The notes under the pieces were generated by a model. It had not been told where the DNA came from and ran no database searches. It was given only the letters and a program-made list of their open reading frames with translations. Shown here one piece after another: positions 2,000 to 23,228 of a DNA stretch of 64,000 nucleotides; positions within the stretch are counted from its first letter, which is position 1; every line of letters begins with the position of its first letter. The DNA is from a bacterium (GTDB lineage: Bacteria > Omnitrophota > Gorgyraeia > Duberdicusellales > 4484-171). The position numbers were made by a program, and so were the translations under genes. The DNA is taken from positions 8,359-72,358 of the forward strand of contig JAJYOP010000006.1 in NCBI GenBank assembly GCA_021796115.1, written 5' to 3'.

Positions 2000-2135
2000 C
2001 CCATTTTGTCAGAATTCCGCGGGCTTCGCCCCTTGGCCTTGCGGCGCAATGTATCAGCGTGGCGGAAAGGGACGTCGCCCGCGCTTTAAGCGGGCAAAAA
2101 AAGGGCCTACGGGTTTTGGCCGTGGGGGCCTCCAG
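2000..2135 (+). repeat. R1 repeat copy A (about 120-135 nt multi-hairpin element)
   Basis: Shares GGCGGAAAGGG-CGTCGCCCGCGCTTTAAGCGGGC-A-run-GGCC-ACGGG-TTT-GCCGTG-GGG-CTCCAG with copies at 12258, 23111 and 2704. ORF 1884..2138 is its translation artefact. Confidence 0.8.
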
Positions 2136-2221
2136 TAGTTGATATGTTTATTTTGACAGGGCAGTAATTAAGAAAATTTGTTGGTTCTTCGCCTGAAAAA
2201 ATTTTATGAGGGGGACGTAAT

Positions 2222-2617
2222 ATGAAAACAAAAAAAATATTAGTAGTTGATGATGACGAGGATTTTTTAAGAGAGTTAAGTGAAATGTTAACTTTAAGCG
2301 GCTATGCGATAATTTCTGCCCATGATAGCAAAATGGTAGCCCAGCTTGCTCAAAGTGTAAATCCCGATGTTATCCTTCTTGACCTTAAAATGAATGGGAT
2401 AGATGGATTTGAGGTAGCGCAAACTTTAAAAGATTCTTCGGAAACAAACCATATTCCGATTATAGCCATGACCGGATATTTTACTTCACCGGAGTACGCT
2501 GATTTGATAGAAAAATATGGCTTCAGGGGGTGCCTTAAAAAACCTTTCAATCCTTTAGACCTGATTATCCGCGTGGAAAGTATTCTGGCAAATAATAAGG
2601 ATAAGGACTGGATATAA
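2222..2617 (+). CDS. stand-alone response regulator receiver
   Basis: ILVVDDDEDF ... LLDLKMNGIDG ... MTG receiver motifs. SD gaggggga. Confidence 0.85.
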   Translation: MKTKKILVVDDDEDFLRELSEMLTLSGYAIISAHDSKMVAQLAQSVNPDVILLDLKMNGIDGFEVAQTLKDSSETNHIPIIAMTGYFTSPEYADLIEKYGFRGCLKKPFNPLDLIIRVESILANNKDKDWI

Positions 2618-2632
2618 TTTCGCGGGTTATTT

Positions 2633-2803
2633 ATGAAAGAAAACGCGCAATTTTATAACAAAATCCTGGATAATCTCTATGATGGCGTCTATGTATTAGA
2701 TATGGCGGGAAGGGGTGTCGCCCGCGCTTTAAGTGGGCGAAATAAAAATGAACCACGGGTAAAGCCCGTGCGGGCTCCAGTAAATTTTCGAAAAGCAGAT
2801 TAA
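2633..2803 (+). pseudogene. 5' remnant of a PAS-domain sensor gene truncated by an R1 repeat copy
   Basis: ATG at 2633 gives MKENAQFYNKILDNLYDGVYVLD, a typical PAS N-terminus. The frame then reads straight into repeat R1 (2704-2780) and stops at 2801. Confidence 0.6.
2704..2780 (+). repeat. R1 repeat copy B (3' two-thirds only)
   Basis: GGCGGGAAGGGGTGTCGCCCGCGCTTTAAGTGGGCGAAATAAAAATGAACCACGGGTAAAGCCCGTGCGGGCTCCAG matches the 3' part of the other copies. Confidence 0.8.
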
Positions 2804-2995
2804 CACAGATACGCGCAGGTTGCATAAAGTGTTCGCAGACAATTTTATCTATAATCTGCGCGTGTCTCGTGTTTTTATGTCCTGATTGCCGCACTTGTGA
2901 TATAATTTCAACCATTGAGTTCCAGGGAACAGGGCGCAGGTTAAACCATATTGGGCCCTGAACCCTGCACTCTGAAACTTGTTTAAAATAAGAAT

Positions 2996-4699
2996 ATGCT
3001 TAACGAACTTACGATAAAAATCGCAGGCGAAGCAGGCCAGGGAATGCAGACTGTCGGATTCAATCTTTGCCAGCTACTTAAAAGAACCGACTTTTACATT
3101 TTTGCCAATCAGGATTACATGTCCCGTGTGCGCGGCGGGAATAACTTTTTTCAACTCCGCATCTCACAAAAGCCTTCACAAGCTTGCCGAAAATTGAGCG
3201 ACATAATTGTTACGCTTGATAAGCAAAGCGTAGCTATCCATGGCACCAATCTTTCCGAAGGCGGCATACTCATAATGGATAGCAAAAAATTCAACATTGC
3301 CCAAGAAGAACGTTATTTTGATATTCCAATGTATGAAATGGCACTTAGCCTAGGTAGCGATTTATTCGTCAATTCGATAGTTTATGGATTAATTTCAGGG
3401 ATACTGGGTATAACCAACGGCAATATTTTTGAAGTTATTAAGGAAGCTTTTTCCGATAAGGGTGAAGAACTGATTTCAAAAAATATTGCCGCCGCAAAAG
3501 CTGGCATAGACTATGCGAAAAATAATTTCAAGGATGAAAGGTTTTTTATGACAGCAAGAACCGGAGAGCGTACTCTTCTGATGAACGGCAATGAGGCAAT
3601 TGCCCTGGGCGCGATACGCGCGGGTTGCAAATTTTATTCCGGTTACCCAATGACACCCTCAACAAGCATCATGAATGAAATGGCATATCACGCAAAAGAT
3701 TTTAATATCATAGTCGAACAGGCAGAAGACGAAATTGCGGCAATAAATATGGTAATCGGCGCTTCATTTGCCGGCGTAAGGGCGATGACAGCCACATCTG
3801 GCGGCGGCCTTTCTTTGATGGTCGAAGGATTATCGCTTGCGGCGATGACGGAAACGCCCGCAGTAATAGTAGATGCACAAAGGCCTGCGCCGGCCACGGG
3901 ATTTCCTACGCGCACTGAACAGGCTGATTTAAATTTTGTACTTTATTGCGGACACGGAGAATTTACCAGAGCAGTATTTACTCCGGGAACGATTGAGGAA
4001 GCCTACTATCTTACTATTCATGCTTTTAATCTTGCCGAAAAATATCAAATCCCGGTTTTGATTATGACTGATCAATATCTTGCCGATTCTTACCGCAACA
4101 TTTCAGAGCTTGACCGGAATGCGATAAAAGTTAAACGCTTTATTATCTCCAGAGAAGCTTCGAAAAACATTACAAATTATAAAAGGTATGAATTAACCGA
4201 TTCAGGCATATCGCCTCGCGCAATACCTTCCTGGATAAATGATGTAATCTATGCCGACAGCGATGAGCATAACCAAGAAGGCCATATCACCGAAGAGGCA
4301 AGAGTACGCGAGAGTATGGTAGAAAAAAGGCTTTATAAGAAAATGCAGGGCCTTGAGAAAGAAGTTATTGAGCCAAAATCTTATAACTTTGAAAAAGCAA
4401 CGATTGTAATTATCGGGTTTGGCTCAACTTTCGGAGCGATAAAAGAAGTTTCTGACGCATCTTCAGGAAAAATAGGGTTTATTCACCTTCCACAGGTTTG
4501 GCCTTTACCGAAAAAAGGACTGACAGATCTTTTAAAAAGCAAACAAAAGGTTATAACCGTAGAAAATAATGCTTCCGGACAGCTTGCAAAATTGCTGCAT
4601 TCCGAAGCCGATATAAAAATTGAAAAATCTATCCTTAAATTTGACGGAAGGCCGTTTAACGCGGACGATTTAATTGAAGAAGTAAATAAGTTATTATGA
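2996..4699 (+). CDS. 2-oxoacid:ferredoxin oxidoreductase, fused gamma/alpha subunit
   Basis: N-terminal gamma-type domain (IAGEAGQGMQTVG) followed by an alpha domain (GYPMTPST, AEDEIAA). Followed by the beta subunit gene. Confidence 0.85.
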   Translation: MLNELTIKIAGEAGQGMQTVGFNLCQLLKRTDFYIFANQDYMSRVRGGNNFFQLRISQKPSQACRKLSDIIVTLDKQSVAIHGTNLSEGGILIMDSKKFNIAQEERYFDIPMYEMALSLGSDLFVNSIVYGLISGILGITNGNIFEVIKEAFSDKGEELISKNIAAAKAGIDYAKNNFKDERFFMTARTGERTLLMNGNEAIALGAIRAGCKFYSGYPMTPSTSIMNEMAYHAKDFNIIVEQAEDEIAAINMVIGASFAGVRAMTATSGGGLSLMVEGLSLAAMTETPAVIVDAQRPAPATGFPTRTEQADLNFVLYCGHGEFTRAVFTPGTIEEAYYLTIHAFNLAEKYQIPVLIMTDQYLADSYRNISELDRNAIKVKRFIISREASKNITNYKRYELTDSGISPRAIPSWINDVIYADSDEHNQEGHITEEARVRESMVEKRLYKKMQGLEKEVIEPKSYNFEKATIVIIGFGSTFGAIKEVSDASSGKIGFIHLPQVWPLPKKGLTDLLKSKQKVITVENNASGQLAKLLHSEADIKIEKSILKFDGRPFNADDLIEEVNKLL

Positions 4700-4828
4700 C
4701 AAACTCTAAACTCGAAACCCTAAACTCTAAACAAACTATAAACTACAAAGTCCAAACACAAAACGTTTTGAGTTTAGAATTTTGAGTTTATGATTTGTTT
4801 AGAGTTTCGAGTTTAGTGTTTAGAATTT
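4700..4828. repeat. about 130-nt imperfect palindrome (word ctaaac/gtttag) between the oxidoreductase subunit genes
   Basis: Left arm is A/C-rich (caaactctaaactcgaaaccctaaactctaaac...). Centre is aaaacgtttt near 4760-4769. Right arm is G/T-rich (..gtttagagtttcgagtttagtgtttag). Confidence 0.85.
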
Positions 4829-4847
4829 AAATTAAACAGAGATATTT

Positions 4848-5705
4848 ATGAACATAAATGATTTCAAAAGTAATGACCCGATAGCCTGGTGTTCAGGTTG
4901 TGGAGATTTTGGCATTCTCACCGCATTAAAAAAATCTCTCCTCAAGCTGGGCAGAGAACCAAAGGATATTTTGCTTGTTTCAGGTATCGGCCAGGCAGCC
5001 AAGCTGCCGCACTATATAAAAAGCAATTGTTTTAACGGGCTTCACGGCAGGGCTATCCCTCCGGCAGTGGCGGCAAAAATTGCGAATAATAAATTAACCG
5101 TTATCGTTACTACCGGCGATGGCGATTGCTATGGAGAAGGCGGCAATCATTTTCTCCATAATATCAGACGAAACACGGATATAACCGTCATTGTCCATAA
5201 TAACCAGATTTACGGCCTTACCAAGGGGCAGGCTTCGCCAACCACAGACCCTGGTTATGTAACTAAAGTTCAAACCGAAGGAGTTGTTTTAGAGCCGCTA
5301 CATCCGCTTGAAATGGCTATTGCGCTGGGCTGTGCTTTTGTTGCGCGAGGATATTGCTCCGACCTTGAACATCTCTCCTGGCTGATACTTGAAGGGATAA
5401 ACCATAGGGGGTTTTCCCTTATCGACGTGCTTCAGCCCTGCGTAACTTTTAACAAAAAAAATACCTACGAATGGTATTCAAAACGGGTTTACAAATTGAA
5501 TGACGATAAATCCTATAACCCCAATGATAAAGATTCAGCTTACAGAAAAGCTGCGGAATGGGGAGAGAGGATACCCATAGGAATAATTTATAAGGCCGAA
5601 AAAGAGTCTTACGAAGAGAAAACAGGGCTTAACCAAAAAACCGCGCTTATAGATGAGAACATCGACGATATCGATATAAGTCCAGCCTTAAAAAAATTTA
5701 TCTGA
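4848..5705 (+). CDS. 2-oxoacid:ferredoxin oxidoreductase, beta (TPP-binding) subunit
   Basis: WCSGCGDFGIL and GDGDCYGEGGNH TPP-binding motifs. Confidence 0.9.
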   Translation: MNINDFKSNDPIAWCSGCGDFGILTALKKSLLKLGREPKDILLVSGIGQAAKLPHYIKSNCFNGLHGRAIPPAVAAKIANNKLTVIVTTGDGDCYGEGGNHFLHNIRRNTDITVIVHNNQIYGLTKGQASPTTDPGYVTKVQTEGVVLEPLHPLEMAIALGCAFVARGYCSDLEHLSWLILEGINHRGFSLIDVLQPCVTFNKKNTYEWYSKRVYKLNDDKSYNPNDKDSAYRKAAEWGERIPIGIIYKAEKESYEEKTGLNQKTALIDENIDDIDISPALKKFI

Positions 5706-5871
5706 CAAAGTTGCGCTTTTCCAAGTTATAACGGCCTAGCGAGCGGCACATTTGTAGAAAAAAGTCGGCAAAAAGAAGAAGCCAGCCATTTACTTAAAGC
5801 CTGCCCTTAACTACACTTCTATTTACAAGGTTATTTATAATTTCTGCAAACGTAACCAAAGGAAAGTAAAA

Positions 5872-7113
5872 ATGCCTAATCAATCCGCTATTTCTTCAAG
5901 AGATGCAAATTTATGCAGCTATGCTTTAAAAAAATTATTTACAACAAGCCGTGCATTAAAAACTTTACGCTACTGCAATCAAGTTTTTATAAAATCATCA
6001 AGCGAGAAAGAGTTGCTTGGTGGCGTGTGCAAAGTCATAGTTAAAGAAGGCGGCTATGTTCTGGCCTGGATTGGTTTTTGCGAAAAAAATCCGCAAAAAA
6101 GTGTTAAGCCTGTGGCCTGGGACGGGATAGGTGGCGCTTACATGAAGAACTTGAAAATTACATGGGCTGATGACGAACATGGTCGAGGGCCAGCAGGCAC
6201 GGCAATACGCACAGCCAAGCCTTATGTTGCTAAAGACATCCTAAAAGATCCCGGCTTTAATCCCTGGCGCCTGGAGGCTCTTAAATGCGGGTATCATTCT
6301 TCCATAGCTTTACCGCTAATTTTTGATAAACATGCCTTTGGAGTATTGTCAATATATGCCAAAGAACAGAATGGTTTTAACGATGAAGAAGAAAAACTGC
6401 TTTTTGAGCTTTCCAATAATCTCTCTTACAGCCTTATGAATTTAAAACTTCGTATCAGGCACCATCTTCAACATCACAAGATGCAGCGCAGGATAGAAGA
6501 TGCGTTTGTCTATACTGTAGGGGCTTTGGCAAGAGCAGCAGAGGCAAATGACGAAGACACAGGCAACCACATATTGAGGGTAGGAGAATATTGTGTGCTT
6601 ATTGCGAAAAAATTAAAAATGCCGAAAAAATTCATAGAAAATATAAGCCTTCAGGCACAACTTCATGATGTAGGCAAGATTCATGTTGACTCCTCCATAT
6701 TAAAAAAAGCCGGCAGCCTTACCTCTGATGAATGGGGCGAAATGAAAAAACATACGATTTTTGGTTCGCAGATAGTAGGCAACCACCCTGTATTTAAAAC
6801 AGCCGGCATCGTTGCGCTTACGCATCATGAAAGATGGGATGGCAGCGGTTATCCCTATGGATTAAAAGGAGGCAATATTCCTATCGAAGGACGGATAATT
6901 GCGATGGCCGATCAATATGATGCTATGAGAAATGCACGTATTTATAAACCGGCATTTGGCCATGAGGAAGTCTATAAAATTATTACCTCCGGCGATGGCA
7001 GGACCAAACCTTCTGATTTTGATCCAGATATTTTGCGGGTGTTTAAAGAAACCCATCTGGAGTTTAACAAAATCTATGAATCTCTCAAAATGAAAAATTC
7101 TCAACTTTTGTAG
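5872..7113 (+). CDS. GAF domain / HD-GYP domain protein (putative c-di-GMP phosphodiesterase)
   Basis: HDVGK ... HHERWDGSGYPYGL HD-GYP signature. GAF-like N-terminal half. Confidence 0.8.
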   Translation: MPNQSAISSRDANLCSYALKKLFTTSRALKTLRYCNQVFIKSSSEKELLGGVCKVIVKEGGYVLAWIGFCEKNPQKSVKPVAWDGIGGAYMKNLKITWADDEHGRGPAGTAIRTAKPYVAKDILKDPGFNPWRLEALKCGYHSSIALPLIFDKHAFGVLSIYAKEQNGFNDEEEKLLFELSNNLSYSLMNLKLRIRHHLQHHKMQRRIEDAFVYTVGALARAAEANDEDTGNHILRVGEYCVLIAKKLKMPKKFIENISLQAQLHDVGKIHVDSSILKKAGSLTSDEWGEMKKHTIFGSQIVGNHPVFKTAGIVALTHHERWDGSGYPYGLKGGNIPIEGRIIAMADQYDAMRNARIYKPAFGHEEVYKIITSGDGRTKPSDFDPDILRVFKETHLEFNKIYESLKMKNSQLL

Positions 7114-7133
7114 AAAGAGTATCAACATAATTC

Positions 7134-7544
7134 ATGTCACAAAAAATAAATAAGCCAAAAATTTTGTGCTCTTCGCTGATTATTTTCCCGCTTTTGTCCG
7201 TCTTTTTTTCTACTTCAAGTATTTTTATCTTACAAAAATGCCCGGCAGCCGAAGAAACACCTCATAAAAAAGCGGTGGTAATAAAAGTTGAGGCCTTCAG
7301 GTATGGCTACTTGCCAGACCCCATAAAAGTAAAAAAAGGCGATAAAGTAAAACTTCTTATAACCTCAAGAGACGTAAAACACGGTTTTTATATAAAGGAA
7401 TACGGCATAAACAGTACGGTGGAAAAAGGCAAAATTACAGAAGTAAATTTCCTTGCCAACAAAAGAGGAGAATTTACCATTGTCTGCACAGTTTACTGCG
7501 GCTCAGGCCATCTTTCCATGAAAGGTAAATTGGTTGTAGAATAA
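7134..7544 (+). CDS. small membrane-anchored or secreted cupredoxin with CuA-type ligand set
   Basis: DVKHGF plus C-TVY-C-GSG-H-LS-M (C-x3-C-x3-H-x2-M). N-terminal hydrophobic segment. Confidence 0.7.
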   Translation: MSQKINKPKILCSSLIIFPLLSVFFSTSSIFILQKCPAAEETPHKKAVVIKVEAFRYGYLPDPIKVKKGDKVKLLITSRDVKHGFYIKEYGINSTVEKGKITEVNFLANKRGEFTIVCTVYCGSGHLSMKGKLVVE

Positions 7545-7600
7545 AGCAAGTGATATTTATCTGGAGTTTCCCCATTTTTTTATTTTTAAAGGACGGGTGT

Positions 7601-7677
7601 CACGGATTGTTGCGGATTCATACGGATAATTATAAGGTTTTATCCGTTTGCATCCGTAACATCCGTTTAAATCCGTG
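7601..7677. repeat. acggat/atccgt word palindrome
   Basis: cacggattgttgcggattcatacggataa ... ttatccgtttgcatccgtaacatccgtttaaatccgtg. ORF 7550..7744 is an artefact of it. Confidence 0.8.
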
Positions 7678-7763
7678 CCTGAAATGTTTACAGATTTGGT
7701 GTTTTGGCGCTAATTCGTGCCATGATGTCAGGCTGCTAAAGTAAATTTTAAAGGAGGTGTGTT

Positions 7764-7961
7764 ATGGCTATCGAGCGAGTTTCGAGGTCCAATCCTTCAT
7801 TAGGTAAACCTAAGGAAGCAATGCATGAAATGATTGCCAAACGTGCTTTTGAGATTTGTCAAAAGCGCGGTTGCCGGCCCGGCAATGAGTGGTCAGACTG
7901 GTTTGACGCGGAAAAAGAGATAAGAGCTGAATTACAGGCGGATATATCAGGAAAAAAATAG
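7764..7961 (+). CDS. DUF2934-like small protein
   Basis: IAKRAFEICQKRGCRPGNEWSDWFDAEKEI motif. Strong SD aaaggaggtg. Confidence 0.65.
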   Translation: MAIERVSRSNPSLGKPKEAMHEMIAKRAFEICQKRGCRPGNEWSDWFDAEKEIRAELQADISGKK

Positions 7962-8018
7962 AAGCTAATCCAGGCTATTTTGCCTAAGGACTTTAGTTTG
8001 TTTTCAAAGGAGGCAGGT

Positions 8019-9118: not shown

Positions 9119-9119
9119 C

Positions 9120-10537: not shown

Positions 10538-12244
10538 ATGTTACGCATATTAAAAGGTTCATTCAACTCGGGATTTTTTATTGTCCTCATATTTATCTCA
10601 GGTATTCTTTTATCTTATGCCTTTTTCCATATGCATGCCCATATGTTTTCCTGGGTGATTTTGTTATGCGGTGTAATTATAACTTTCATTCTTACGGGTT
10701 ATGTTTTCGGCATTTTAAATAGAGCCCGGCATATAGAATCTCTGATTAAAGAACGTACGCGGGAACTTAGCAATTTGAACGAAGAGTTAAAGAATTTATC
10801 CAGGAAAAATGAATTAATTCTCTCTTCTGCGGGCGAAGGGATACTGGGTGTTGATACTGATGGCAGACACACTTTTTTAAACCCCATGGCTTTAGAAATG
10901 CTTGGGTATACGCCGGAAGAACTTATCGGCGAAGGCAGCCATCAAATATGGCATTATTCAAAAGTAGACGGCGGCATTTATAAGAAAGAAGGCTGTCCGA
11001 TATGTCTAGCATTTAAAGATGGCAAAGTGTATTATGGGAAAAATGAAATTTTTTTCCGTAAAGACGGCTCCACTTTTTATGTTGATTACATAAGCAAACC
11101 GATAATATCTGATGAAAAAATAATTGGCGCTGTAGTAACCTTCAGGGATATCACTGAACGCCGCCTTGCCGAAGAAAAAATAAAACAGGCCGCTCAAGAG
11201 TGGGAGAGGACATTTAATGCTATAACTGACCTTGTTTTTATCCAGGACAGGAACAATTTTATTTTAAAAGCAAACAAAGCGTGCCTAAAAGCCTTAAAAA
11301 TGAAACCGGAAGATGTAATCGGAAGAAAATGTTATGAGGTATTTCACGGTTTAAACGAGCCTTTTCCCGGGTGCCCTTTCGAAAAAACAAAAAAAGACGA
11401 GAAAGCACATACCGAGGAAATTTTTGACCCGAAAATAGGAATCCCGCTCCTTGTAACGACTTCCCCGATTTTTAATGACGCCGGCCGCATGATTGGTTCT
11501 GTGCATATTTCTAAAGATATAAGCCGGATAAAAGAAGTAGAGCGAAAAATGGAAGAAGCGCTGGAAATCGAATCAGATTTTATATCCACAGTTTCTCACG
11601 AATTACGTACGCCGCTTTCTGCAATGAAGGAAGCGATAAATTTGGTGAGTGAAGGTTTAACCGGCCCGGTAACCGGCGAACAGCAGGAATTTTTAATTAT
11701 CGCCAAAAGAAACGTAGAAAGGCTGACAAGATTGATAAATGACGTTTTAGATTTTAAAAAACTTGAATCGGGAAGAGTAATTTTTGATATGCAGGATAAC
11801 AGCATCAACGAGGTTGTCGAAGAGATAAAAGATACAATGATTGCTCTGGCGCAGAATAAAGGGTTAAGCATTAACTTTGAGCTTGACGTAAGTATTAAAA
11901 ATTTTAAATTTGACAGGGATATGATTATACAGGTTTTGACGAACATAATAAATAATGCGATTAAATTTACTGAAAACGGCGGAATAAATATTTCTACCAA
12001 AAAAGAGGCTAATTATGTTACGGTCGCAATAAAAGATACCGGGCCGGGCATAAAAAAAGAAGATATCCCGAAATTATTTCAAAAATTCTCGCAACTCGAG
12101 AAAGGAATATCCAGAAAAACCGGCGGTACGGGCTTAGGGCTTGCTATTTCCAAGGAAATAATAGAAAAACACGGCGGTAAAATCTGGATTGAATCTGAAT
12201 TTTCAAAAGGCACTACTTTTTATTTCACTTTACCGAACATCTAA
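10538..12244 (+). CDS. membrane-anchored tandem-PAS sensor histidine kinase
   Basis: Two N-terminal TM helices and two PAS-like regions. H-box SHELRTPL. ATPase boxes NNAIKFT, DTGPGI, GTGLGLAI. Confidence 0.9.
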   Translation: MLRILKGSFNSGFFIVLIFISGILLSYAFFHMHAHMFSWVILLCGVIITFILTGYVFGILNRARHIESLIKERTRELSNLNEELKNLSRKNELILSSAGEGILGVDTDGRHTFLNPMALEMLGYTPEELIGEGSHQIWHYSKVDGGIYKKEGCPICLAFKDGKVYYGKNEIFFRKDGSTFYVDYISKPIISDEKIIGAVVTFRDITERRLAEEKIKQAAQEWERTFNAITDLVFIQDRNNFILKANKACLKALKMKPEDVIGRKCYEVFHGLNEPFPGCPFEKTKKDEKAHTEEIFDPKIGIPLLVTTSPIFNDAGRMIGSVHISKDISRIKEVERKMEEALEIESDFISTVSHELRTPLSAMKEAINLVSEGLTGPVTGEQQEFLIIAKRNVERLTRLINDVLDFKKLESGRVIFDMQDNSINEVVEEIKDTMIALAQNKGLSINFELDVSIKNFKFDRDMIIQVLTNIINNAIKFTENGGINISTKKEANYVTVAIKDTGPGIKKEDIPKLFQKFSQLEKGISRKTGGTGLGLAISKEIIEKHGGKIWIESEFSKGTTFYFTLPNI

Positions 12245-12257
12245 CCGCTGAAATTTA

Positions 12258-12377
12258 ACCCTTTTTGCCAGAATTCCACAAGCGAAGCCCGGGGGCTGGT
12301 GGCGGAAAGTGGCGTCGCCCGCGCTTTAAGCGGGCAAAATAAAAATGGCCCACGGGCTTTAGCCGTGCGGGTTTCAG
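12258..12377 (+). repeat. R1 repeat copy C
   Basis: aaccctttttgccagaattcc...ggcggaaagtggcgtcgcccgcgctttaagcgggcaaaataaaaatggcccacgggctttagccgtgcgggtttcag. Confidence 0.85.
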
Positions 12378-14367: not shown

Positions 14368-14524
14368 GGCTTTATGGTAGCATAGGGTCAAAAGTAATGC
14401 AAATGAAATAACCAAGTTCTAAGAGACAATAATCCCAGGAGGGATAGGTCTTCCTGTATACATTTATAAGGAAGGCCCTAACCCCAAAGGGGTAGGGCTT
14501 CCTATACCTTTAAAGGAAGGCCCT

Positions 14525-14701
14525 AACCAAACAATGACCAAATCGCAAATCCCAAGTACCAAACAAATTCCAATATCCAATGTTTCAAATTCTAAACAAA
14601 ATGAGTTTGGAACATTGGAATTTGGAAATTGGAATTTATTTGGAATTTGGGATTTGGAGCTTGTAGTTTGTTTGTATCTTGTATCTTGGTTATTGGTTAT
14701 T
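14525..14701. repeat. ccaaat/atttgg long hairpin family, copy 1
   Basis: aaccaaacaatgaccaaatcgcaaatccc...ctaaacaaaatgagtttgg...ggaatttgggatttgg...cttggttattggtt. Related to copies at 44089, 55442, 56624 and 59509. Confidence 0.85.
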
Positions 14702-14717
14702 CCTCGAAATTGAATTT

Positions 14718-15611
14718 ATGATACGTAACTTTATTCAAGCCATCCGTCTCCCATTTATTACCGCAAGCCTCCTGCCATTTTTCTTTGGTTCGTTCATAGT
14801 CAGGAAACATTTCGCTTTCGCAGGTTTCGTCCTCGGCCTTATCGCCGCACTTTCTACGCATATAAGCGCAAATCTTATAAACGATTATGGTGATTCCCGT
14901 TCTGGCGCCGACTGGCATGATAAAAAAGCATATAAGTTTTTTGGCGGTTCAAAATTAATCCAACAAAACATATTTTCCGAAAAATTTTACCTGACAAGCG
15001 CAATTATTTTTATTTTAATTTCGGCTGCGTCGGTTGCTTTATTGTCAGTAGTATTAAAAAGTTATTTTGTCTTAGCCATTTATGCAATAATTGCTACCTT
15101 AAGCTGGCTTTACTCAATATCTCCTTTGAGATTTTCTTATCATAGAGTGGGGGAGGTGTTTCTTTTCTTGCTCTTCGGCCCGGCTCCAGTTATGGGCGGA
15201 TATTTTATCCAGACAGGAATATTTCCTGATTTCAAAAGCTTTCTCTTATCTCTGCCTTTCGGAATGTTTACGACAGCCATACTCTTTGCCAATGAAGTTC
15301 CTGATTTTGCTGACGACCAGAAAGCCGGGAAGAATACCTGGGTCAGTTTAATCGGGCCGCAAAATTGCTTCATTTTTTATTACTTTTTAATCTTTTCCGG
15401 TTTCTTTTTAATTTTATTGAATGTGCTTTTTGCTTTCTTAAGCCCGTTTGCTTTATTCACATTTTTCTTTGTGATACCTGCGCTTCAGGCAGCGCAAATA
15501 ATAAAAAAATCTTTCGAAAATAAAACAGAGTTAATAAAATCTTCCAAACTTACCATTATGGTGCAAAATCTTGTAGCTGTCTGTTTGGTGCTGGTAATAC
15601 TTTTTTCCTAG
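14718..15611 (+). CDS. UbiA-family aromatic prenyltransferase (MenA-like)
   Basis: NDYGDSRSGAD motif and multiple TM helices. The start at 14679 in the ORF track lies inside the hairpin repeat, so ATG 14718 is preferred. Confidence 0.75.
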   Translation: MIRNFIQAIRLPFITASLLPFFFGSFIVRKHFAFAGFVLGLIAALSTHISANLINDYGDSRSGADWHDKKAYKFFGGSKLIQQNIFSEKFYLTSAIIFILISAASVALLSVVLKSYFVLAIYAIIATLSWLYSISPLRFSYHRVGEVFLFLLFGPAPVMGGYFIQTGIFPDFKSFLLSLPFGMFTTAILFANEVPDFADDQKAGKNTWVSLIGPQNCFIFYYFLIFSGFFLILLNVLFAFLSPFALFTFFFVIPALQAAQIIKKSFENKTELIKSSKLTIMVQNLVAVCLVLVILFS

Positions 15612-15684
15612 CCTAGTGCCGGCAGGTCGATATTTGAAATAAGTTTATCTCAATAATTGTAATCTAAAACAAGGGGGGTGCACG

Positions 15685-16436: not shown

Positions 16437-17522
16437 ATGGTCAAATTTGACGAAATCATTTCCGGTTCTTTAGAATGGACGGTAACGGTCTTGTTCAGGC
16501 CTTTTTCTCCGAAGAAATGGCTTATCTTGGGTTTTGTCGCCTTAATGGCAGGGGCCCTTATGGGCGGTAATCTCAATTTACGCTCAGGCAGCCGTGATTA
16601 CCGCGTAAAAGAAACCAAAACCGAAGAGCTATCCCCGCAAAAATCCATAGAAAAGTCAAAAACCCCGGCTGTCCCGGCTAAAGTCCGGCTCAAAAATGCA
16701 ATTAAATCTTACCTGCGAGACATGCGGGGCAGTGGTTTTACCGGTATATTTATAGGGGTAGTTTTTATACTTTTTATAATACTTATAATATTTATCTGGC
16801 TCGGCGCACGCTTCCATTTTATATTTCTTGAAGATGTGATCAAAAATGATGCTTCAATAGTTCTGCCTTTTAAAAGCAACAAAGGCATAGGCAACTCTTT
16901 TTTCCAATTTAATATTCTATTTTTATTAATTTTTGCAATTGTATTTGGTTTAATTATTTTCGGCTGCATTCTAGCTTTGATAAAAATCGGAGCCTTCAAC
17001 CAGCAGGTATCGCCCGATTTTCTTAAAATTTTATCTGTAATCTTGCCATTTACCTTATTGCTTATATTAGCGATACTGATCTCTGTATTTATATTTATTA
17101 TTGTAGAAGATTTTGCGCTCATTATTATGTTAAAAGACAGAATAAAAATTACAGCAGCGATTAAAAAAGCCATGGCAATTTTAGGTGCAAACAAGGCAAA
17201 TTTCCTACTCTATGTTCTTATTAAATGGGGCCTGGCCATTTGCTCATCAATTATTTATGGAGTTATGTATTTTGTGACCTTCTTTGGATTGCTTTTTCCT
17301 GCAGTAACATCCGCTTCATTTTTATATTTTATTTACCGAACAATACCTAAAAATATCCAATCTGTTTTTTTAATGGTTATTGTTGTCATGGCCATATCCA
17401 TTTTGATATTTTTGTGGTACTGTTTCGCCTGTATGTCTTTACCATTTGCCGTTTTCTTCAGAACATTCAGTGTGAAATTTTTAGGAAGGCTCGATAACAG
17501 GTACGATCTTTTTAAGTACTAG
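16437..17522 (+). CDS. polytopic membrane protein of unknown function
   Basis: 361-aa ORF with several long hydrophobic segments. Confidence 0.6.
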   Translation: MVKFDEIISGSLEWTVTVLFRPFSPKKWLILGFVALMAGALMGGNLNLRSGSRDYRVKETKTEELSPQKSIEKSKTPAVPAKVRLKNAIKSYLRDMRGSGFTGIFIGVVFILFIILIIFIWLGARFHFIFLEDVIKNDASIVLPFKSNKGIGNSFFQFNILFLLIFAIVFGLIIFGCILALIKIGAFNQQVSPDFLKILSVILPFTLLLILAILISVFIFIIVEDFALIIMLKDRIKITAAIKKAMAILGANKANFLLYVLIKWGLAICSSIIYGVMYFVTFFGLLFPAVTSASFLYFIYRTIPKNIQSVFLMVIVVMAISILIFLWYCFACMSLPFAVFFRTFSVKFLGRLDNRYDLFKY

Positions 17523-17626
17523 TTTTAGGTTACGAAGATTACACTTTAACCACGAGGTTATAAATGTAACTTTCGTAACTTCCCGTAACATCCGTAACCT
17601 TCGTAACATATAATAGGGAGAAGGAA

Positions 17627-18388
17627 ATGAATTGTATAAATCATCCCGATAAAGAAGCCAAAGGCGTATGCAATCTTTGCGCCAAAACCATATGTTCCGA
17701 TTGCGCCGTTCTATTAAAAGGTGAGTTGTACTGCAAGAATTGCCTTCCTGCAAAAATGGGCGAAGCAAAAAGGCAGGAACATTCCCCGGCATTAGCCGCT
17801 ATTTTGAGTTTCGTAATCGCTGGTTTAGGCCAAATTTATAACGGCCAGGTCTGGAAAGGCTTATTAATATTTGTAACTTCATGGCTGGTATTTCCCTGGA
17901 TTATAGGTATTTTTGACGCATATTTTACTGGCAAAAAAATCAATGAAGGAAAAATTATTTTTAAGAAGAAAACCGGCTGCCTTATCGCGATGATAGTCGG
18001 GGTATTTTTATTATGGATAATGATTCTTATTCTTTTTTTAATTGCGGTGATAGCTGCGCCGGGCATACTTAAGGCAAAAGGAATGGCTGATGAGCAGGCT
18101 GCCAAATCGACTCTGCGGTCTGTATCGGCTGCGTTTGAGCTATATGCGACAGAGAACAATAATATATATCCGGAAAGTGAAGCAAGTTTAATCGCAATGC
18201 CGCCGCTTAATAACCGCAAAGTTCATGGTTATTTTTTTCGCGAAGAGCTCAAAACATCCGGCTATAAAATTACCGCAATTCCAGCTTATTGCTATAAAGG
18301 TATACATGCTTTTATAATTGAGACTGGCGGCAAATTATCGCAAGAAGATTGTAGGCTTGGGATCGATTCATATCACGACGGAAATTAG
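17627..18388 (+). CDS. zinc-ribbon (B-box-like) / TM2-like / pilin-like domain membrane protein
   Basis: CINHP..CNLC..CSDC..YCKNC, then SPALAAILSFVIAGLGQIYNG, then TM + APGILKAKGMADEQAAKSTLRSVSAAFELYATENNNIYP, which resembles the alpha1-C region of type IV pilins. Confidence 0.6.
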   Translation: MNCINHPDKEAKGVCNLCAKTICSDCAVLLKGELYCKNCLPAKMGEAKRQEHSPALAAILSFVIAGLGQIYNGQVWKGLLIFVTSWLVFPWIIGIFDAYFTGKKINEGKIIFKKKTGCLIAMIVGVFLLWIMILILFLIAVIAAPGILKAKGMADEQAAKSTLRSVSAAFELYATENNNIYPESEASLIAMPPLNNRKVHGYFFREELKTSGYKITAIPAYCYKGIHAFIIETGGKLSQEDCRLGIDSYHDGN

Positions 18389-18441
18389 TCCATAGTCGAC
18401 AAATTTAAGACTACGGATTGTCGACTAAAGGAAGGAGGTTT

Positions 18442-19416
18442 ATGCGTAATAAAATACTATCTTTGCTGGTTTTATCTTTTTTGGTTTGTGCCAGTCTTTT
18501 TGCTGATACCATTCTACTTAAATCCGGCAAAACAGTTGAGGGAAAAATAATAGAAAAGACCAGTGGCTCGGTAAAATTAGAAATCGAAGGCATACCCTTG
18601 ACTTATTATATTAGCGATATAGATTCAATAAATGGGCAAAAGATAGCTCAAAATTCCGGAAGTTCTAATCCTACTGCAATATCATCCACTCCCCGGGAAA
18701 ACCCCTCTATTCCGGAGCAGCGGAAAGTCGCAGCAACCGGAATAACTACAACTAATAATCAGACTCCTTCTGCCGGTGAAACGGATTTGTTTAAAGAAAA
18801 AGAAGTAAAAAATGAACAATCAGAAGCGAATCCGGAAAATAAGTCATATTTAGATTATTCAGACAGCAGAAAATTATCTTTGAATAAAATGGCTCCCGGC
18901 CAGGCCGGCATTGCGGCAGGATTTCTTGCCGGCATCTTCTTGTTTATGGCAATCTTTATTATTGTAACCTATATTTATTCCGCAATCTGCCTTTCCTTTA
19001 TCGCAAAAAAAACAAACTCCGGGCCTTCCTTCCTGGCTTGGATTCCTTTTGCGCATCATTTTCTAAGATTCAAAATTGCAAACACGAGCTATCTCTGGAT
19101 ATTTATTCCCATAGGTGTATTCATTATCGGTTTAATAAGCGGAATGTCTTCTGCTATAATGGGTGCCTTAAGCGGAGCGAGCAAATTTCCGGCCGCAGCA
19201 GTTAATCCTTTAACTATAATAATAAATTTTTTCCTTAGTGCAGTTTATGCTGCTTTTTCCGGTTTTGTCTGGTATAAAATCGCCCTGGCAAGAAATAAAC
19301 CAAGCTGGATTGGCGCTTTGATGGCGATAAGTATTTTAAATGGCCTGCCAATTATCTCTTTCTTATCGATTGTCGGCTGTTTAGTGATAATGGGTTATTT
19401 GGCTTTTGCCGAATAA
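18442..19416 (+). CDS. exported/membrane protein of unknown function
   Basis: ATG 18442 after aggagg. Signal peptide, low-complexity linker, C-terminal multi-TM region. Confidence 0.6.
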   Translation: MRNKILSLLVLSFLVCASLFADTILLKSGKTVEGKIIEKTSGSVKLEIEGIPLTYYISDIDSINGQKIAQNSGSSNPTAISSTPRENPSIPEQRKVAATGITTTNNQTPSAGETDLFKEKEVKNEQSEANPENKSYLDYSDSRKLSLNKMAPGQAGIAAGFLAGIFLFMAIFIIVTYIYSAICLSFIAKKTNSGPSFLAWIPFAHHFLRFKIANTSYLWIFIPIGVFIIGLISGMSSAIMGALSGASKFPAAAVNPLTIIINFFLSAVYAAFSGFVWYKIALARNKPSWIGALMAISILNGLPIISFLSIVGCLVIMGYLAFAE

Positions 19417-19483
19417 TTCCAGGCCAACAAGCTTCTACCTCAAGCATTGACAACTCATTGTTTAACCCCTATAGTATTCCGAT

Positions 19484-20413
19484 ATGCAAGACTCGATATA
19501 TTTAATTCTCAGGAAAATATTCTTCTGGTTTTTTCTGCTCGCTTTTCTTATTCTTACACCAATAATCGTCTACTATTCTTTAGGGTACAAATTTGATGCA
19601 ATGGCAAAAAAGTTCTTAAAGACCGGCGCCATTTCCATCAAAACATTTCCTAAAGGAATAAATGTCTATCTGGATGGTAAAAAAATTAAAGAAACCACCC
19701 CTTGCACCATAAGAGAGCTTTTGCCTAAAGAATATAACCTCACTCTTGAGAAAGAAGGGTTCTATCCTTATGAAATGAAAGTTGAGGTTAAGCCTTCACA
19801 GATACAGGATATAGATATTTTTATTGTTCCCAGGATGGTCGATATAACAAAACTCAAGATGGATTTACATATTTATAAATTTTTTGTGGCTAAACACTTA
19901 TTCGGAGAAACCATAATAGTTTTTACGGACAAAGGCATCTATTTTCTCGATGGAGACTTTAAAGGCGCCAGAAAGGTGTCTTCACAGATTTTTGAAGAGA
20001 ATATCGCAAATTCTATCGAAAATTTAAAGGAAAATAATGGCAGGTTTTTATTCTGGAATAAAAATAATCTTTGGATGCTAGATAGTTCCCAGGTAAACGA
20101 CAAAGACGAAAAATATCCTGGCGCTATGCTTATTTATAAAGCAGAGGATGAGATAAAAGATGTTTTCTTTGGCTTCAGGGGAAAATATATCGTGATTCAC
20201 GACGGGCTCAAAGTTATTGCTCTTGACGCCGAAAACCTTAAGGTTTCTTTCCCCCTCTATGAGTTAAAAAGCGTGCGCTCAAAGATTTTTTATGATTCGC
20301 GTTCCGAGACTATTTATATACAGGATAAGGTCCAGGGAACTAATGGATTTTCATTGTTTAGAGCAGAAATAATTCCGCTCATAAACGAAAGGATTCTCAA
20401 TGAACGAAAATAG
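19484..20413 (+). CDS. PEGA-domain membrane-anchored protein
   Basis: N-terminal TM. PEGA-like FPKGINVYLDGKKIKETTPCTIRELLPKEYNLTLEKEGFYPY. Overlaps the next gene by 14 nt. Confidence 0.7.
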   Translation: MQDSIYLILRKIFFWFFLLAFLILTPIIVYYSLGYKFDAMAKKFLKTGAISIKTFPKGINVYLDGKKIKETTPCTIRELLPKEYNLTLEKEGFYPYEMKVEVKPSQIQDIDIFIVPRMVDITKLKMDLHIYKFFVAKHLFGETIIVFTDKGIYFLDGDFKGARKVSSQIFEENIANSIENLKENNGRFLFWNKNNLWMLDSSQVNDKDEKYPGAMLIYKAEDEIKDVFFGFRGKYIVIHDGLKVIALDAENLKVSFPLYELKSVRSKIFYDSRSETIYIQDKVQGTNGFSLFRAEIIPLINERILNERK

Positions 20414-21896
20414 GACTAAACGCATATTGGAAATTATCCCCGGATTTTTAAGCTGGTCGATTATTATTTTTCTCATTTTGCTTTTTATTATTAAACCGCT
20501 GGCAGCTATTATCGTAATCATCATTTACCTGATATACTGGATATGCCGGCTGCTTTATTCGAGCTTACTTCTTTTAATGACTAATCAACGGATACTTTCC
20601 AAGAAAAATTACGATTGGCTCGTCCTTTGCAAAAGATTAAATTCCGACTTAAAATTTGAAAATATTATTCACGTCGTCCTTTATACTACTTACAAAGAAA
20701 CGAAAGAACTTTTAGCGGGAAGCCTTAATTTTTTAAAAGAGACGAATTACCCCAAAGATAAAATCATAGTAGTTTTAGCCGGAGAAGAGAGGGCGGCTGA
20801 TTCATATGCAAGGCTTGAAGCTTTAAAAAAAGAATATAAGGATTATTTTTTGGATGTGATAATAACTATTCATCCCAAAAACATAGAAGGAGAGATACCA
20901 ACGAAAGGAGCCAATGCTACTTTTTCGGCAAAACAGGTAAAAGTGCATCTTGAAGAGAAAGGCTATGACTTAAAAAATATAATAATATCGTGTTTTGACG
21001 CGGATACCTGCCCGGATAAAAGTTATTTTTCATGCCTCACTTACAATTTTCTAAATAATAAGAAGAGATATCAGATGAGTTTTCAGCCTTTACCGGTCTA
21101 TAGCAACAATATCTATTCGGCACCTGCTTTTGCACGGGTAATCGAGGTGGGTTCGACTTTCTGGCAGCTTATTGAAGGTATGAGGTTTGAAAAATTCATA
21201 ACTTTTTCTTCGCACAGTATGAGCTTTGATACTCTGGTTAAAGTAGATTATTGGCCGGTTGATTTAATCTCCGATGATTCATTGATATTCTGGAAGTGTT
21301 TTTTAAAATACAATGGAGACTATAAAACTTTCCCTTTAGATATTCCTGTTTATATGGATATAGCTGTGGGCAGGAATTTTCTTGATACAATAGCTGTCCA
21401 ATACCGGCAGAAAAGAAGATGGGCCTGGGGTGTCGAAAACTTTACCTTTGTCGCTCAACATTTTCTTAAAAATAAAGATATACCTTTATTTTTAAAAATA
21501 CGTAAATTATACCAAATCCTGGATGGCCACATAAGCTGGGCTACTTGGGCTATAATAATAAGTTTCATAACACCGCTTGTTTTATTTCTCGGAAAAATTA
21601 TTTTAAAAAATTCCCTGGCGCTTTTTAACCTTACCTATATAAATGGCGTAGTTTTTCATTCCCTCACTTTTATCTTAATGCTTTGCGTAATTATCAGCTG
21701 GGAATTTACGCCTCCGCGGCCGAAAAATGTATCGCGATTTATCTATCTTTCATTTTTGTTCCAATGGCTCCTTACGCCGTTGATTTCAGCAGCTTTAGGT
21801 TCAACGCCTTCTTTAGACGCGCAGACGCGGCTCATGTTTGGAAAGTATCTTTCGTTTAATACAACGCCTAAACAAAGAAAGAAGGACGAGGGGTAA
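20400..21896 (+). CDS. membrane-embedded processive family-2 glycosyltransferase (cellulose/chitin/PNAG-synthase-like)
   Basis: CFDADT motif and Q-K-R-R-W (QxxRW). TM helices at both ends. Confidence 0.8.
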   Translation: MNENRTKRILEIIPGFLSWSIIIFLILLFIIKPLAAIIVIIIYLIYWICRLLYSSLLLLMTNQRILSKKNYDWLVLCKRLNSDLKFENIIHVVLYTTYKETKELLAGSLNFLKETNYPKDKIIVVLAGEERAADSYARLEALKKEYKDYFLDVIITIHPKNIEGEIPTKGANATFSAKQVKVHLEEKGYDLKNIIISCFDADTCPDKSYFSCLTYNFLNNKKRYQMSFQPLPVYSNNIYSAPAFARVIEVGSTFWQLIEGMRFEKFITFSSHSMSFDTLVKVDYWPVDLISDDSLIFWKCFLKYNGDYKTFPLDIPVYMDIAVGRNFLDTIAVQYRQKRRWAWGVENFTFVAQHFLKNKDIPLFLKIRKLYQILDGHISWATWAIIISFITPLVLFLGKIILKNSLALFNLTYINGVVFHSLTFILMLCVIISWEFTPPRPKNVSRFIYLSFLFQWLLTPLISAALGSTPSLDAQTRLMFGKYLSFNTTPKQRKKDEG

Positions 21897-21971
21897 AATG
21901 AGAGGGGCAATAGTTTTTTGACTTCTCTCTTCTGTTTTCTGTCTTATGTCGCCATGATCATGAGTTACGAC

Positions 21972-21999
21972 TTGACAAAGAAATTTTTTTTAGTATATT
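21972..21999 (+). promoter_or_regulatory. sigma70-like promoter
   Basis: TTGACA (21972-21977), 16-nt spacer, TATATT (21994-21999). Confidence 0.4.
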
Positions 22000-22140
22000 T
22001 TATTTGTAAACACGATTAGCACAAATGTGGGATGCTTATCGGCAGGCAGGAATTTCCCACGAATAAAAAATGAATTTGTTTTCTATTCATGGCAATTCGT
22101 TTCTAGTTCGTGATAATTTGTATGTAAAAAAGGAGAAGCT

Positions 22141-22320
22141 ATGGCGAAAAAAATAGATAAGAAAAAAGAATCAGCAGAAAAATATTCTAAAGACGAAATA
22201 GCTAAAATATGCGAAAGAGCATATTTTATTTGGTTGAATAAATCAAAGCCGGCGAACAGTGCTCTTTCCGACTGGCTTCAGGCAGAGACAGAATTGAAAA
22301 AAGAACGTAAAATTAAATAA
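22141..22320 (+). CDS. DUF2934-like small protein (59 aa, below ORF-track cutoff)
   Basis: aaggagaagct ATG. ICERAYFIWLNKSKPANSALSDWLQAETEL resembles the 7764 protein. Confidence 0.6.
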   Translation: MAKKIDKKKESAEKYSKDEIAKICERAYFIWLNKSKPANSALSDWLQAETELKKERKIK

Positions 22321-22368
22321 GAGCCGGTTTTTTTGATTTTTTAATAACGCAATGCATGGGAGGTAAAG

Positions 22369-22587
22369 ATGGCAAAGGCGAGAACTATTAAATGCCCGGA
22401 ATGCCAAGATGAGTTTGAGTTAGAAGATTATTTAGAGGTGGGAGATACTACTTTTTGCGTAAGTTGCGATACGGAGCTTAAAGTTGTTAAGCTTGACCCT
22501 CCTCAAGTTGAGATAGTTGCTGTCAATGAAAATGAAGATGAAGGGCAAGATTTTGATGAAGATGACGCGGAAGATGAAGATTTTTAA
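22369..22587 (+). CDS. LysW-like zinc-ribbon protein with long acidic C-terminal tail
   Basis: IKCPECQDEFELEDYLEVGDTTFCVSCDTELKVVKLDPPQVE parallels Thermus LysW (CPECGAELRLEN..VCEDCGAELEVVGLDPLRLE). Tail is NENEDEGQDFDEDDAEDEDF. Confidence 0.65.
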   Translation: MAKARTIKCPECQDEFELEDYLEVGDTTFCVSCDTELKVVKLDPPQVEIVAVNENEDEGQDFDEDDAEDEDF

Positions 22588-22600
22588 AAAGGAGGATTAA

Positions 22601-23050
22601 ATGTTTAAAAAGACTTTACCCGTATTCTTAATCGCAATAGCCCTGTTGTCGCTGCCTAGTTTTGCTGAAGAAAAAAAGAGCAACGTTCCGCCGCAAGCTG
22701 CTAATACTACCGCACAAACCGCAGTTTCCAAAGAGCAGCCAAAGGCCCAAGTTCAGCCACAAACTACGCCGCAAAGTGCCCCTCAGGAAGAAGTCGTTAA
22801 GGGCGTAATAAAAGAGATAGCTAATGACGGAAGCTATGTAATTGTTAACGATACAAAAATCCTTACGACCAAAGAATTTCTGGAAGATTCATACCTCGAA
22901 GTTGGAGACAATGTAGAAATCACGGCAGAAAAAACTGACCAGGGCCTTAAGGCAAAGAGCTATAACTATATTTTTGAGGAAGAAGGCTCCACAGCAACTC
23001 CGGATGAGCCGTCTAATGACAGCACTGAAGAGTCGCCTCAAGGGTATTAA
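22601..23050 (+). CDS. secreted acidic protein of unknown function
   Basis: Signal peptide LLSLPSFA-EE, then a Q/P-rich linker and a small globular domain. Confidence 0.6.
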   Translation: MFKKTLPVFLIAIALLSLPSFAEEKKSNVPPQAANTTAQTAVSKEQPKAQVQPQTTPQSAPQEEVVKGVIKEIANDGSYVIVNDTKILTTKEFLEDSYLEVGDNVEITAEKTDQGLKAKSYNYIFEEEGSTATPDEPSNDSTEESPQGY

Positions 23051-23070
23051 TCATTTGGAATGATTATCAA

Positions 23071-23108
23071 ATAGCCCTCTCATATTCGTAATGAAAGGGC
23101 TATTTTTA
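23071..23108 (+). terminator. rho-independent terminator
   Basis: Stem atagccct/agggctat followed by ttttt. Confidence 0.6.
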
Positions 23109-23110
23109 TT

Positions 23111-23228
23111 AATCCCTTTTGCCAGAATTTCACGGGCTTCGTCCGTGGATGAATAGCGGAAAGGGGCGTCGCCTGCGCTTTAAGCGGGTAAAAAAAAGAC
23201 CTACAGGTTTTGCCTGTGCGGGCTCCAG
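23111..23228 (+). repeat. R1 repeat copy D
   Basis: aatcccttttgccagaatttcacgggcttcgtccgtg...gcggaaaggggcgtcgcctgcgctttaagcgggtaaaaaaaagacctacaggttttgcctgtgcgggctccag. ORF 23119..23313 is an artefact. Confidence 0.85.

Follow-up and report, generated by a model that had tools for sequence, protein, structure and literature searches.

R1, a gene-less mobile DNA element from an uncultivated Omnitrophota bacterium with probable affinities to IS200/IS605-derived palindrome-associated elements

Palindrome-associated transposable elements (PATEs) are gene-less derivatives of IS200/IS605 insertion sequences (IS), represented by the Haloquadratum, Halanaerobium and Geobacillus ISGst families (PMC7290912, PMC10055086). 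They consist only of ends (100 to 300 nt), lack inverted terminal repeats and target duplications, abut a fixed tetra- or pentanucleotide at the left end, carry subterminal hairpins on one strand and are presumably mobilised in trans (PMC7290912, PMC10055086). These features recur in R1, a repeat found in a 64,000-nt stretch of DNA (the window; GenBank contig JAJYOP010000006.1, positions 8,359 to 72,358 of the forward strand) from an uncultivated Omnitrophota bacterium. As judged from orthologous sites with and without it, R1 is a gene-less mobile DNA element of 114 to 192 nt and not a fixed RNA motif. The original prediction on the window had considered an element of this kind or, alternatively, an RNA motif of the 3' untranslated region (3'-UTR).

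The window contains three full copies of R1 (A, C and D) and one 3' fragment (B), all on the + strand, with agreement between direct reading, a repeat finder and a MAFFT alignment. A 21-nt core (GTCGCCNGCGCTTTAAGNGGG) occurred four times when up to 3 mismatches were permitted, compared with 0.00 occurrences expected from 100 shuffles. Copies A, C and D were used to build a covariance model, which scored them at 122 to 129 bits and copy B at 48 bits, with no other substantial match in the window. The G+C content of R1 is approximately 60%, versus approximately 39% for the window. The four same-strand copies proposed originally were recovered by all of these approaches, with the start of copy C corrected to 12259, that of copy D to 23113 and copy B delimited as 2703 to 2780. 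The sequence blocks in common, the A-run, the pair of hairpins and the terminal YYCAG also agree with the original description.

Copy A (2000 to 2135, + strand; 136 nt, 62% GC, 122.5 bits) follows a TTAA motif at 1996 to 1999 and begins 160 nt 3' of a response-regulator gene (1477 to 1839). Copy C (12259 to 12377, + strand; 119 nt, ending in TTTCAG, 122.7 bits) follows a TTAA at 12255 to 12258 and starts 14 nt beyond the stop codon of a histidine-kinase gene (10538 to 12244); a Logan short-read contig of the same sample ends within this copy, as a repeat would predict. Copy D (23113 to 23228, + strand; 116 nt, 129.4 bits) follows a TTAA at 23109 to 23112 that forms the end of the T-run of an upstream intrinsic terminator (hairpin plus T-run, approximately 23074 to 23108). 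The TTAA motifs were read directly, and those of copies A and C were also confirmed in a print of the junctions. Copy B (2703 to 2780, + strand; 48.1 bits) is truncated at its 5' side. It retains the 3' half of helix P1, hairpin P3, the A-run, hairpin P4 and the CTCCAG terminus (the helices are defined below), lacks the first third of the element and is joined to the first 23 codons of a PAS-like open reading frame (ORF) remnant (2633 to 2702). The start of this PAS-type sensor ORF (MKENAQFYNKILDNLYDGVYVLD) reads straight into the truncated copy. Because the left third is missing and the remainder is fused to a PAS-like reading frame, copy B can be regarded as a deletion remnant, which suggests a deletion that removed the left third of R1 and, with it, the greater part of a kinase gene.

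The copies had been described as lying on the + strand just downstream of a + strand gene. The strand assignment held, but copy B adjoins an ORF remnant and not an intact gene. Placement on the same strand and downstream of genes is weak evidence in any case, since approximately 97% of the window genes are on the + strand and the GC skew is positive throughout.

Evidence for mobility came from contigs fetched for comparison (L003, L005, L008, L010, L020, L032 and L050), among which L003, L005, L008, L010 and L050 represent relatives of the window; L013 denotes the source contig. The window, part of a 173-kb contig of a metagenome-assembled genome, is placed in Candidatus Omnitrophota by homologues of the lysine-2,3-aminomutase gene beside copy D. 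Where the window has copy D, L010 reads tttattttttaa/tgagcacgtgattttttcaag, while the window itself reads tatttttattaa/(TCCC...CTCCAG, 116 nt)/tgagcacgtgattttttcaag (slashes mark junctions). The site is likewise empty in L005 and L050, the sequence 5' of the junction ending in TTTTTTAA in all three relatives. The terminator upstream of copy D is kept in relatives without R1 and no T-run follows P4, in line with the earlier view that this terminator is separate and that R1 is not itself the terminator. L008 and L003 also lack R1 at this site, but their alignments were too poor to count as empty sites. A second comparison is provided by L003, where a 192-nt R1 copy (64 codons) lies in frame within an ATP-grasp gene; four orthologues, including that of the window, lack these 64 residues. 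L003, with an aminomutase identity of 81%, carries this copy in its syntenic locus. Here, L010 reads atcaaaaatttaa/aaatgaataactta and L003 reads atcaaaaatttaa/(R1, 192 nt)/aaattgataactta. Both boundaries are unambiguous at the ATP-grasp site, as the count of A residues excludes an alternative register.

With the ends fixed to the base by these two orthologous empty sites, R1 is read as 5'-YCCC...YYCAG-3', placed directly 3' of TTAA without duplication. A total of seven copies was identified, four in the window and three in related Omnitrophota contigs, and six of them retain the left end. Of these six independent copies, five have TTAA at the left junction and one has TTCA, an enrichment with a binomial P of 3e-10 to 3e-9 given a background TTAA frequency of 0.9 to 1.4%. 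The junction had been proposed as TTAAY/CC; TTAA is indeed conserved, and remained so as copies were added, but the cut was placed one base off, since the empty sites show TTAA/Y, with Y being the first base of the element. At the right end, copy D stops after the G of CTCCAG (23223 to 23228, + strand), and YYCAG is present in all seven copies. No repeated flank was found at any of the seven copies, and both empty-site comparisons were exact to the base, so target-site duplication is absent. Terminal inverted repeats are also absent, the 5' end (YCCCTTTTGCCAGAATT) and the 3' end (CCGTGCGGGCTCCAG) not being reverse complements of each other. The left-end sequence is YCCCTTTTGCCAGAATTCCACGGGC, and joined element ends would read CTCCAG/TCCCTTTTGCC.

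The consensus fold of R1 comprises four helices (P1 to P4). P1 is a long-range helix in which the first 11 to 12 nt (CCCUUUUGCCA) pair with UGGCGGAAAGGG; in copy D its 5' half (CCCTTTTGCCA) is at 23114 to 23124 and its 3' half (TAGCGGAAAGGGG) at 23154 to 23166 (all copy D features are on the + strand), with 91% of cells paired. Within P1 lies the hairpin P2 (CCACGGGC...GCCCGUGG), the left subterminal palindrome, which in copy D reads TCACGGGC-TTC-GTCCGTGG (23130 to 23148). In copy D, P2 and the 3' half of P1 were placed from the pair counts of the consensus fold. P3 is a hairpin of the form GCCCGC-GCUUUAA-GCGGGC (GCCTGC-GCTTTAA-GCGGGT at 23171 to 23189 in copy D; 97% paired) and is followed by an A-rich linker, seen by direct reading as an A-run at 23190 to 23197. 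P4, the right subterminal palindrome, has the form CCCACGGG...CCGUGcGGG, in which a single base, always in the same place, stays unpaired, and precedes the CUCCAG tail; in copy D it reads CCTACAGG-TTTTG-CCTGTGcGGG (23200 to 23222). The two subterminal hairpins, P2 and P4, have the stem CCACGGGC/GCCCGTGG in common, essentially identical and on the same strand. GAAT(T) directly precedes the foot of P2, which is 16 to 17 nt from the left cut, while P4 is 6 to 10 nt from the right cut.

Across the seven copies, standard pairs occupy 88% of the pair cells, compared with 33 to 52% when the partners are slid by 1 to 3 columns. In the longest copies, those of L003 (192 nt) and L032 (191 nt), additional nested hairpins are found solely at helix apexes or in linkers, with the helix bases retained. 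Likewise, the base of the P3 stem is kept in all copies, while its apex is replaced in L003 and L032. Copy A has 19 additional nt after P2 and ahead of the 3' half of P1. The cleanest copy, in L020, folds into the same four helices (z = -4.3). As far as the alignment of seven copies allows a judgement, the structure of R1 is clearly maintained, the pattern of nested insertions being more telling evidence than covariation.

Searches of public data returned very few further copies. An exact pattern for the P3 core had a single match among 185,579 reference genomes (one per species), a chance match in an archaeon without the hairpin, and no match in the JGI metagenomes. A P1/P2 pattern retrieved 28 metagenomic stretches, comprising 2 true R1 copies, both from one metagenome, and 26 chance matches. 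No R1 was found in viral contigs with two patterns, and BLAST against annotated plasmids and phages gave no meaningful similarity. A protein search with the concatenated six-frame peptides of R1, a long and low-complexity query, had no match. No further full copy is present in the 18 kb of source contig beyond the window, and a fuzzy search of all fetched DNA (435 kb) for solo left or right ends, tandem copies and circle junctions recovered known copies only. In the collections covered, R1 is rare and confined to a narrow Omnitrophota lineage.

The absence of inverted ends and of target duplication, the fixed tetranucleotide outside the left end, the different conserved motif inside the right end and the alike, set-back hairpins on one strand together form the signature of IS200/IS605 peel-and-paste transposition. 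On balance, we consider it likely that R1 is a non-autonomous, gene-less, single-strand 'peel-and-paste' element, that is, a PATE-like IS200/IS605 derivative targeting TTAA. A Y1 transposase of the HUH class, acting in trans, would bind the alike top-strand (+) hairpins P2 on the left and P4 on the right, and would cut a single strand directly after the flanking TTAA and after the terminal YYCAG. The donor would then be resealed seamlessly, and the excised strand would be pasted 3' of another TTAA in transiently single-stranded DNA. We infer the class of the enzyme, the single-stranded intermediate and the use of GAAT(T) as the DNA guide for TTAA. The apexes of the R1 hairpins tolerate nested insertions, and in all four window copies the top strand is on the G-rich + strand, i.e., the lagging-strand template, on which IS200/IS605 elements preferentially have their active strand.

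IS608 of Helicobacter pylori, the paradigm of the family, offers the closest mechanistic parallel. As in R1, its target tetranucleotide lies outside the left end (TTAC, versus TTAA for R1) and its right cleavage site lies inside the element (TCAA, versus CCAG or TCAG), and a GAAT tetranucleotide is found 5' of a hairpin foot (PMC3201880, PMC5934647). The end hairpins of IS608 are also alike, at cut distances of 19 and 10 nt compared with the 16 to 17 and 6 to 10 nt of R1 (PMC3201880; PMC7290912). The guide GAAT of IS608 recognises TCAA (PMC5934647). Under the IS608 pairing rule, the GAAT(T) 5' of the P2 foot of R1 fits TTAA. The single exception among the R1 targets, TTCA, departs from TTAA at position -2, and it is this position that is non-canonical in IS608. 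Unlike R1, IS608 encodes tnpA and tnpB; in addition, the hairpin sequences of the two are unrelated and the right-end guide pairing of R1 is unconvincing. R1 also departs from the described PATEs in that neither a transposase nor a parent IS sharing its ends was identified, and in having an extra conserved helix (P1), a middle hairpin (P3), a narrow range within the Omnitrophota and no similarity to annotated plasmid or phage records.

Several observations weigh against an IS200/IS605 origin. Most directly, genes for a Y1 transposase, TnpB or IscB are absent from the window and its 18-kb flanks (82 kb of the 173-kb source contig), where all genes are housekeeping or signalling genes and no transposase of any kind was found. 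Neither the 435 kb of fetched DNA nor the scans of public collections yielded an autonomous element with R1 ends, and no solo left or right end of R1 flanks a gene in the fetched DNA. IS200-type Y1 genes do occur in related Omnitrophota (the L008 gene has 36 homologues in the protein collection), and the three loci inspected have no R1-like ends. The long-range helix P1, although conserved, is outside the canonical model of IS200/IS605 ends and unexplained by transposition. A right-end guide (NGGC versus CCAG) can be read in only 3 of 7 copies, where the bases may equally well lengthen the stem of P4, and the copies offer no guide/target pair that covaries. The window copies did not fold more favourably than shuffled sequences of equal composition, and comparing the folding of top and bottom strands was uninformative. 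Covariation is thin: a compensatory G:C to A:U change in P4 of copy D (pair 255/316) is the single two-sided pair change across the seven copies, and most stems are simply conserved. The predicted hairpins are maintained as helices, with this one compensatory pair. Finally, only seven copies are known, and the orientation bias of the window copies is confounded with gene orientation. Overall, the palindrome-associated reading put forward originally is partly supported. It agrees with site presence and absence, the fixed tetranucleotide, the lack of duplication and inverted repeats and the alike subterminal hairpins; the decisive component, a cognate Y1, TnpB or IscB gene with R1 ends, was not found in 82 kb of source contig or 435 kb from relatives.

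The Y1 genes of the relatives encode compact, IS200-like proteins of 134 to 139 aa (L008, 4687 to 5106; L043, 4001 to 4420, with the same locus in L044 to L048; L049, 374 to 778) and are wedged in operons (RND pump, type II secretion E/F, PqqD) with spacers of 4 to 20 nt, which leave no room for conventional IS ends. Each compact Y1 ORF contains two perfect 8-bp hairpins, CCCCATGC-N4-GCATGGGG and CCACAGGC-N4-GCCTGTGG, the latter resembling P2 and P4. By these sequence criteria, the Y1 enzyme class exists in the clade, yet no partner of R1 is identified.

The lack of a cognate Y1 gene in the 82 kb of source contig is also what would be expected if R1 were moved, again without target duplication, by a system other than Y1, such as an IS91/ISCR-type Y2 rolling-circle enzyme or an undescribed system. 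Uninverted ends, the absence of duplication, a fixed tetranucleotide and subterminal hairpins are generic to HUH single-strand mobility and do not single out Y1. However, Y1 is a better fit for an element so small, with two almost identical hairpins spaced from the cuts much as in IS608 and a guide-like GAAT tetranucleotide, and we regard a non-Y1 mover as unlikely. The targets of IS91 are GTTC or CTTG. Conservative site-specific recombinases and IS110-type enzymes are disfavoured, since the target TTAA/N, which has a variable right flank, and the joined ends CCAG/YCCC have no common core.

A different view of the maintained four-helix architecture, in which changes are restricted to apexes, is that R1 functions primarily as a structured RNA (a 3'-UTR or cis-regulatory motif, a small RNA or an omega-RNA-like scaffold reading into the right flank) and has spread only secondarily. 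All seven copies are co-oriented with their flanking genes, invariant G-U pairs in P1 favour the + strand, and PATEs have been reported often to carry omega-RNAs (PMC10055086). However, Rfam 15 gave no match, either at gathering thresholds on the whole window or at relaxed E values of up to 5 to 10 on two stretches with R1 and two loci, and no promoter-like site was found in or before copies C and D. Copy D lies behind an intrinsic terminator, and the L003 copy forms an in-frame, translated part of a gene for an enzyme. Moreover, since the orthologous sites are cleanly empty, R1 is dispensable at each locus; together with the weak covariation and a TTAA junction that a pure RNA motif leaves unexplained, this makes a primary RNA function quite unlikely. 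For the 3'-UTR motif offered as an alternative in the original prediction, the position of copy D after a terminator, the in-frame coding copy and the empty sites were the unfavourable points.

Two more speculative variants, to which we assign a low probability, are that the whole 116-nt four-helix unit, including the P1 helix for which the transposition model has no use, is transcribed into the right flank and serves as a compact guide-RNA scaffold for a TnpB-like nuclease encoded elsewhere, or that R1 is handled by the operon-wedged compact Y1 proteins, the genes of which contain an R1-like hairpin. If either were true, R1 would count as a self-contained 'ends plus RNA' element of unusually small size, and such systems are undescribed in the phylum.

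Repetitive extragenic palindromes (REPs) and bacterial interspersed mosaic elements (BIMEs), which are associated with REP-associated tyrosine transposases (RAYTs), resemble R1 as GC-rich extragenic hairpins with presumed handling in trans by Y1 HUH enzymes. Mobilisation of R1 as a REP/BIME-type repeat by a domesticated RAYT could draw on the P2/P4-like hairpin CCACAGGC-N4-GCCTGTGG contained in the operon-embedded Y1_Tnp genes of relatives and on a stand-alone CCACGGGCATGCCCGTGG hairpin in L008. In contrast to REPs, which are single palindromes of 20 to 40 nt, often in inverted pairs or clusters and with a flanking RAYT gene, R1 is a composite of 114 to 192 nt with a defined target and precise ends, always occurs as single units in one orientation and has no GTAG/GGAG-type 5' tetranucleotide. 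Furthermore, the Y1 genes are flanked neither by R1 nor by its hairpins. The anatomy thus does not fit the REP/RAYT variant of the original prediction, which we consider improbable.

That the copies are mere segmental duplications or chance similarities, with no distinct element, is practically negligible: the clustering of four copies within 23 kb is the sole point in its favour, against unrelated flanks, four occurrences of the core versus 0 expected, copies at unrelated loci in other genomes and empty sites exact to the base.

Three further classes of element were considered and rejected. A DDE-type miniature inverted-repeat transposable element would require terminal inverted repeats and target-site duplication, and R1 has neither. 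An integron attC site, a single imperfect palindrome between RYYYAAC and GTTRRRY core sites at the 3' end of cassettes, is contradicted by the right end (YYCAG and not GTTRRRY), the housekeeping neighbours and the multi-helix structure. An intrinsic terminator does not agree with the absence of a + strand T-run after P4 or with the separate terminator that copy D follows; only the - strand is terminator-like. On that strand, the complement of P4 followed by a T-run scores as terminator-like in 3 of 4 copies (12351 to 12367, 23203 to 23217 and 2754 to 2770), and R1 might block antisense transcription.

As a PATE-like element, R1 would be of an expected kind, gene-less IS200/IS605 derivatives being already known. 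Nevertheless, it gives the uncultivated phylum Omnitrophota, in which repeats are essentially uncharacterised, a precisely delimited small mobile element, and it is a clean natural case of seamless insertion beside TTAA; in one copy the insertion is in frame and lengthens an enzyme by 64 residues. Rickettsia palindromic elements are small structured repeats that also occur in frame within coding genes and add a peptide segment, by a mobility that is not understood. R1 resembles them in outcome only, through the single case of the L003 ATP-grasp gene, and has no sequence relation to them. In practical terms, R1 breaks short-read assemblies and generates spurious ORFs, and a covariance model would improve the annotation of these genomes. 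Should a partner enzyme be found, R1 would represent the minimal ends of a TTAA-targeting single-strand transposition system.

Other hairpin repeats are present in the same DNA. The fragment at approximately 39142 to 39215 had been linked to R1 in the original prediction. It does belong to a related hairpin family, but this family is separate and undetected by the R1 model, having in common with R1 only the TTAA/TCCC start and the CCCGGGCTTTAGCCCGTGGG hairpin. The modules at 39143 to 39223 (+ strand) consist of the TTAA/TCCC start, CCCGGGCTTTAGCCCGTGGG 15 nt further on and a second, degenerate module repeat, and a third member (TTCCTCGCGAGATACCCCGGGCTTTACCGACCGGG) is found at 490 to 527 (+ strand), assigned to the same family by the repeat finder. 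By these module comparisons, the stretches 39142 to 39215 and 490 to 516 are a related but separate hairpin family and not R1. In the source contig, approximately 13 kb past the right end of the window, a different 150-nt element (L013, 15580 to 15735) folds strongly (z = -5.8), has the same hairpin at both ends (CCCGGGCTTTAGCCCGCGGG, CCACGGGCTTTAGCCCGCGG) and terminates in ATTCAG; it is probably a sister family of R1.

At the site corresponding to copy D, L003 (9500 to 9930) carries other small repeats, including a GTATAATTCGACTAAG-type unit that is also repeated in the window (61723 to 61814) and a multi-hairpin unit bounded by the inverted repeat gtgacaaaatt...aattttgtcac. Immediately downstream of copy D, a conserved leader precedes the lysine-2,3-aminomutase gene (window, 23229 to 23331; L010, 1517 to 1602; L005, 9885 to 9992; L050, 9925 to 10000). 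It consists of a long hairpin (tgagCACGTGATTTTTTC...GAAAAAATCACAGTGcg) followed by aattaCCCC...GGGGtaatg beside the start codon, has no Rfam match and may represent a cis-regulatory RNA not yet described.

Long intergenic direct and inverted repeats with arms of 60 to 85 nt, built from the short periodic units TTGGAATTTGG / CAAATTCCAA and AAACTCTAAAC, were observed in the window at 4701 to 4828, 14524 to 14721, 44090 to 44217, 55434 to 55634, 56629 to 56816 and 59495 to 59784 and in L013 at 15390 to 15570. Another intergenic family consists of spaced ACGGAT / ATCCGT units resembling an array of binding sites (window, 7594 to 7631, 35295 to 35331, 60900 to 60953 and 62889 to 62971). Lastly, the window encodes a protein of the PF05635 family (23S rRNA intervening-sequence protein; 37749 to 38228) after a 753-aa SpvB/ZU5-domain protein. 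Among the members of PF05635 are the Avd proteins, which are accessory to diversity-generating retroelements. An ORF for a reverse transcriptase is absent from the vicinity of this gene, which is followed by approximately 1 kb of non-coding DNA and then by two tRNA genes.

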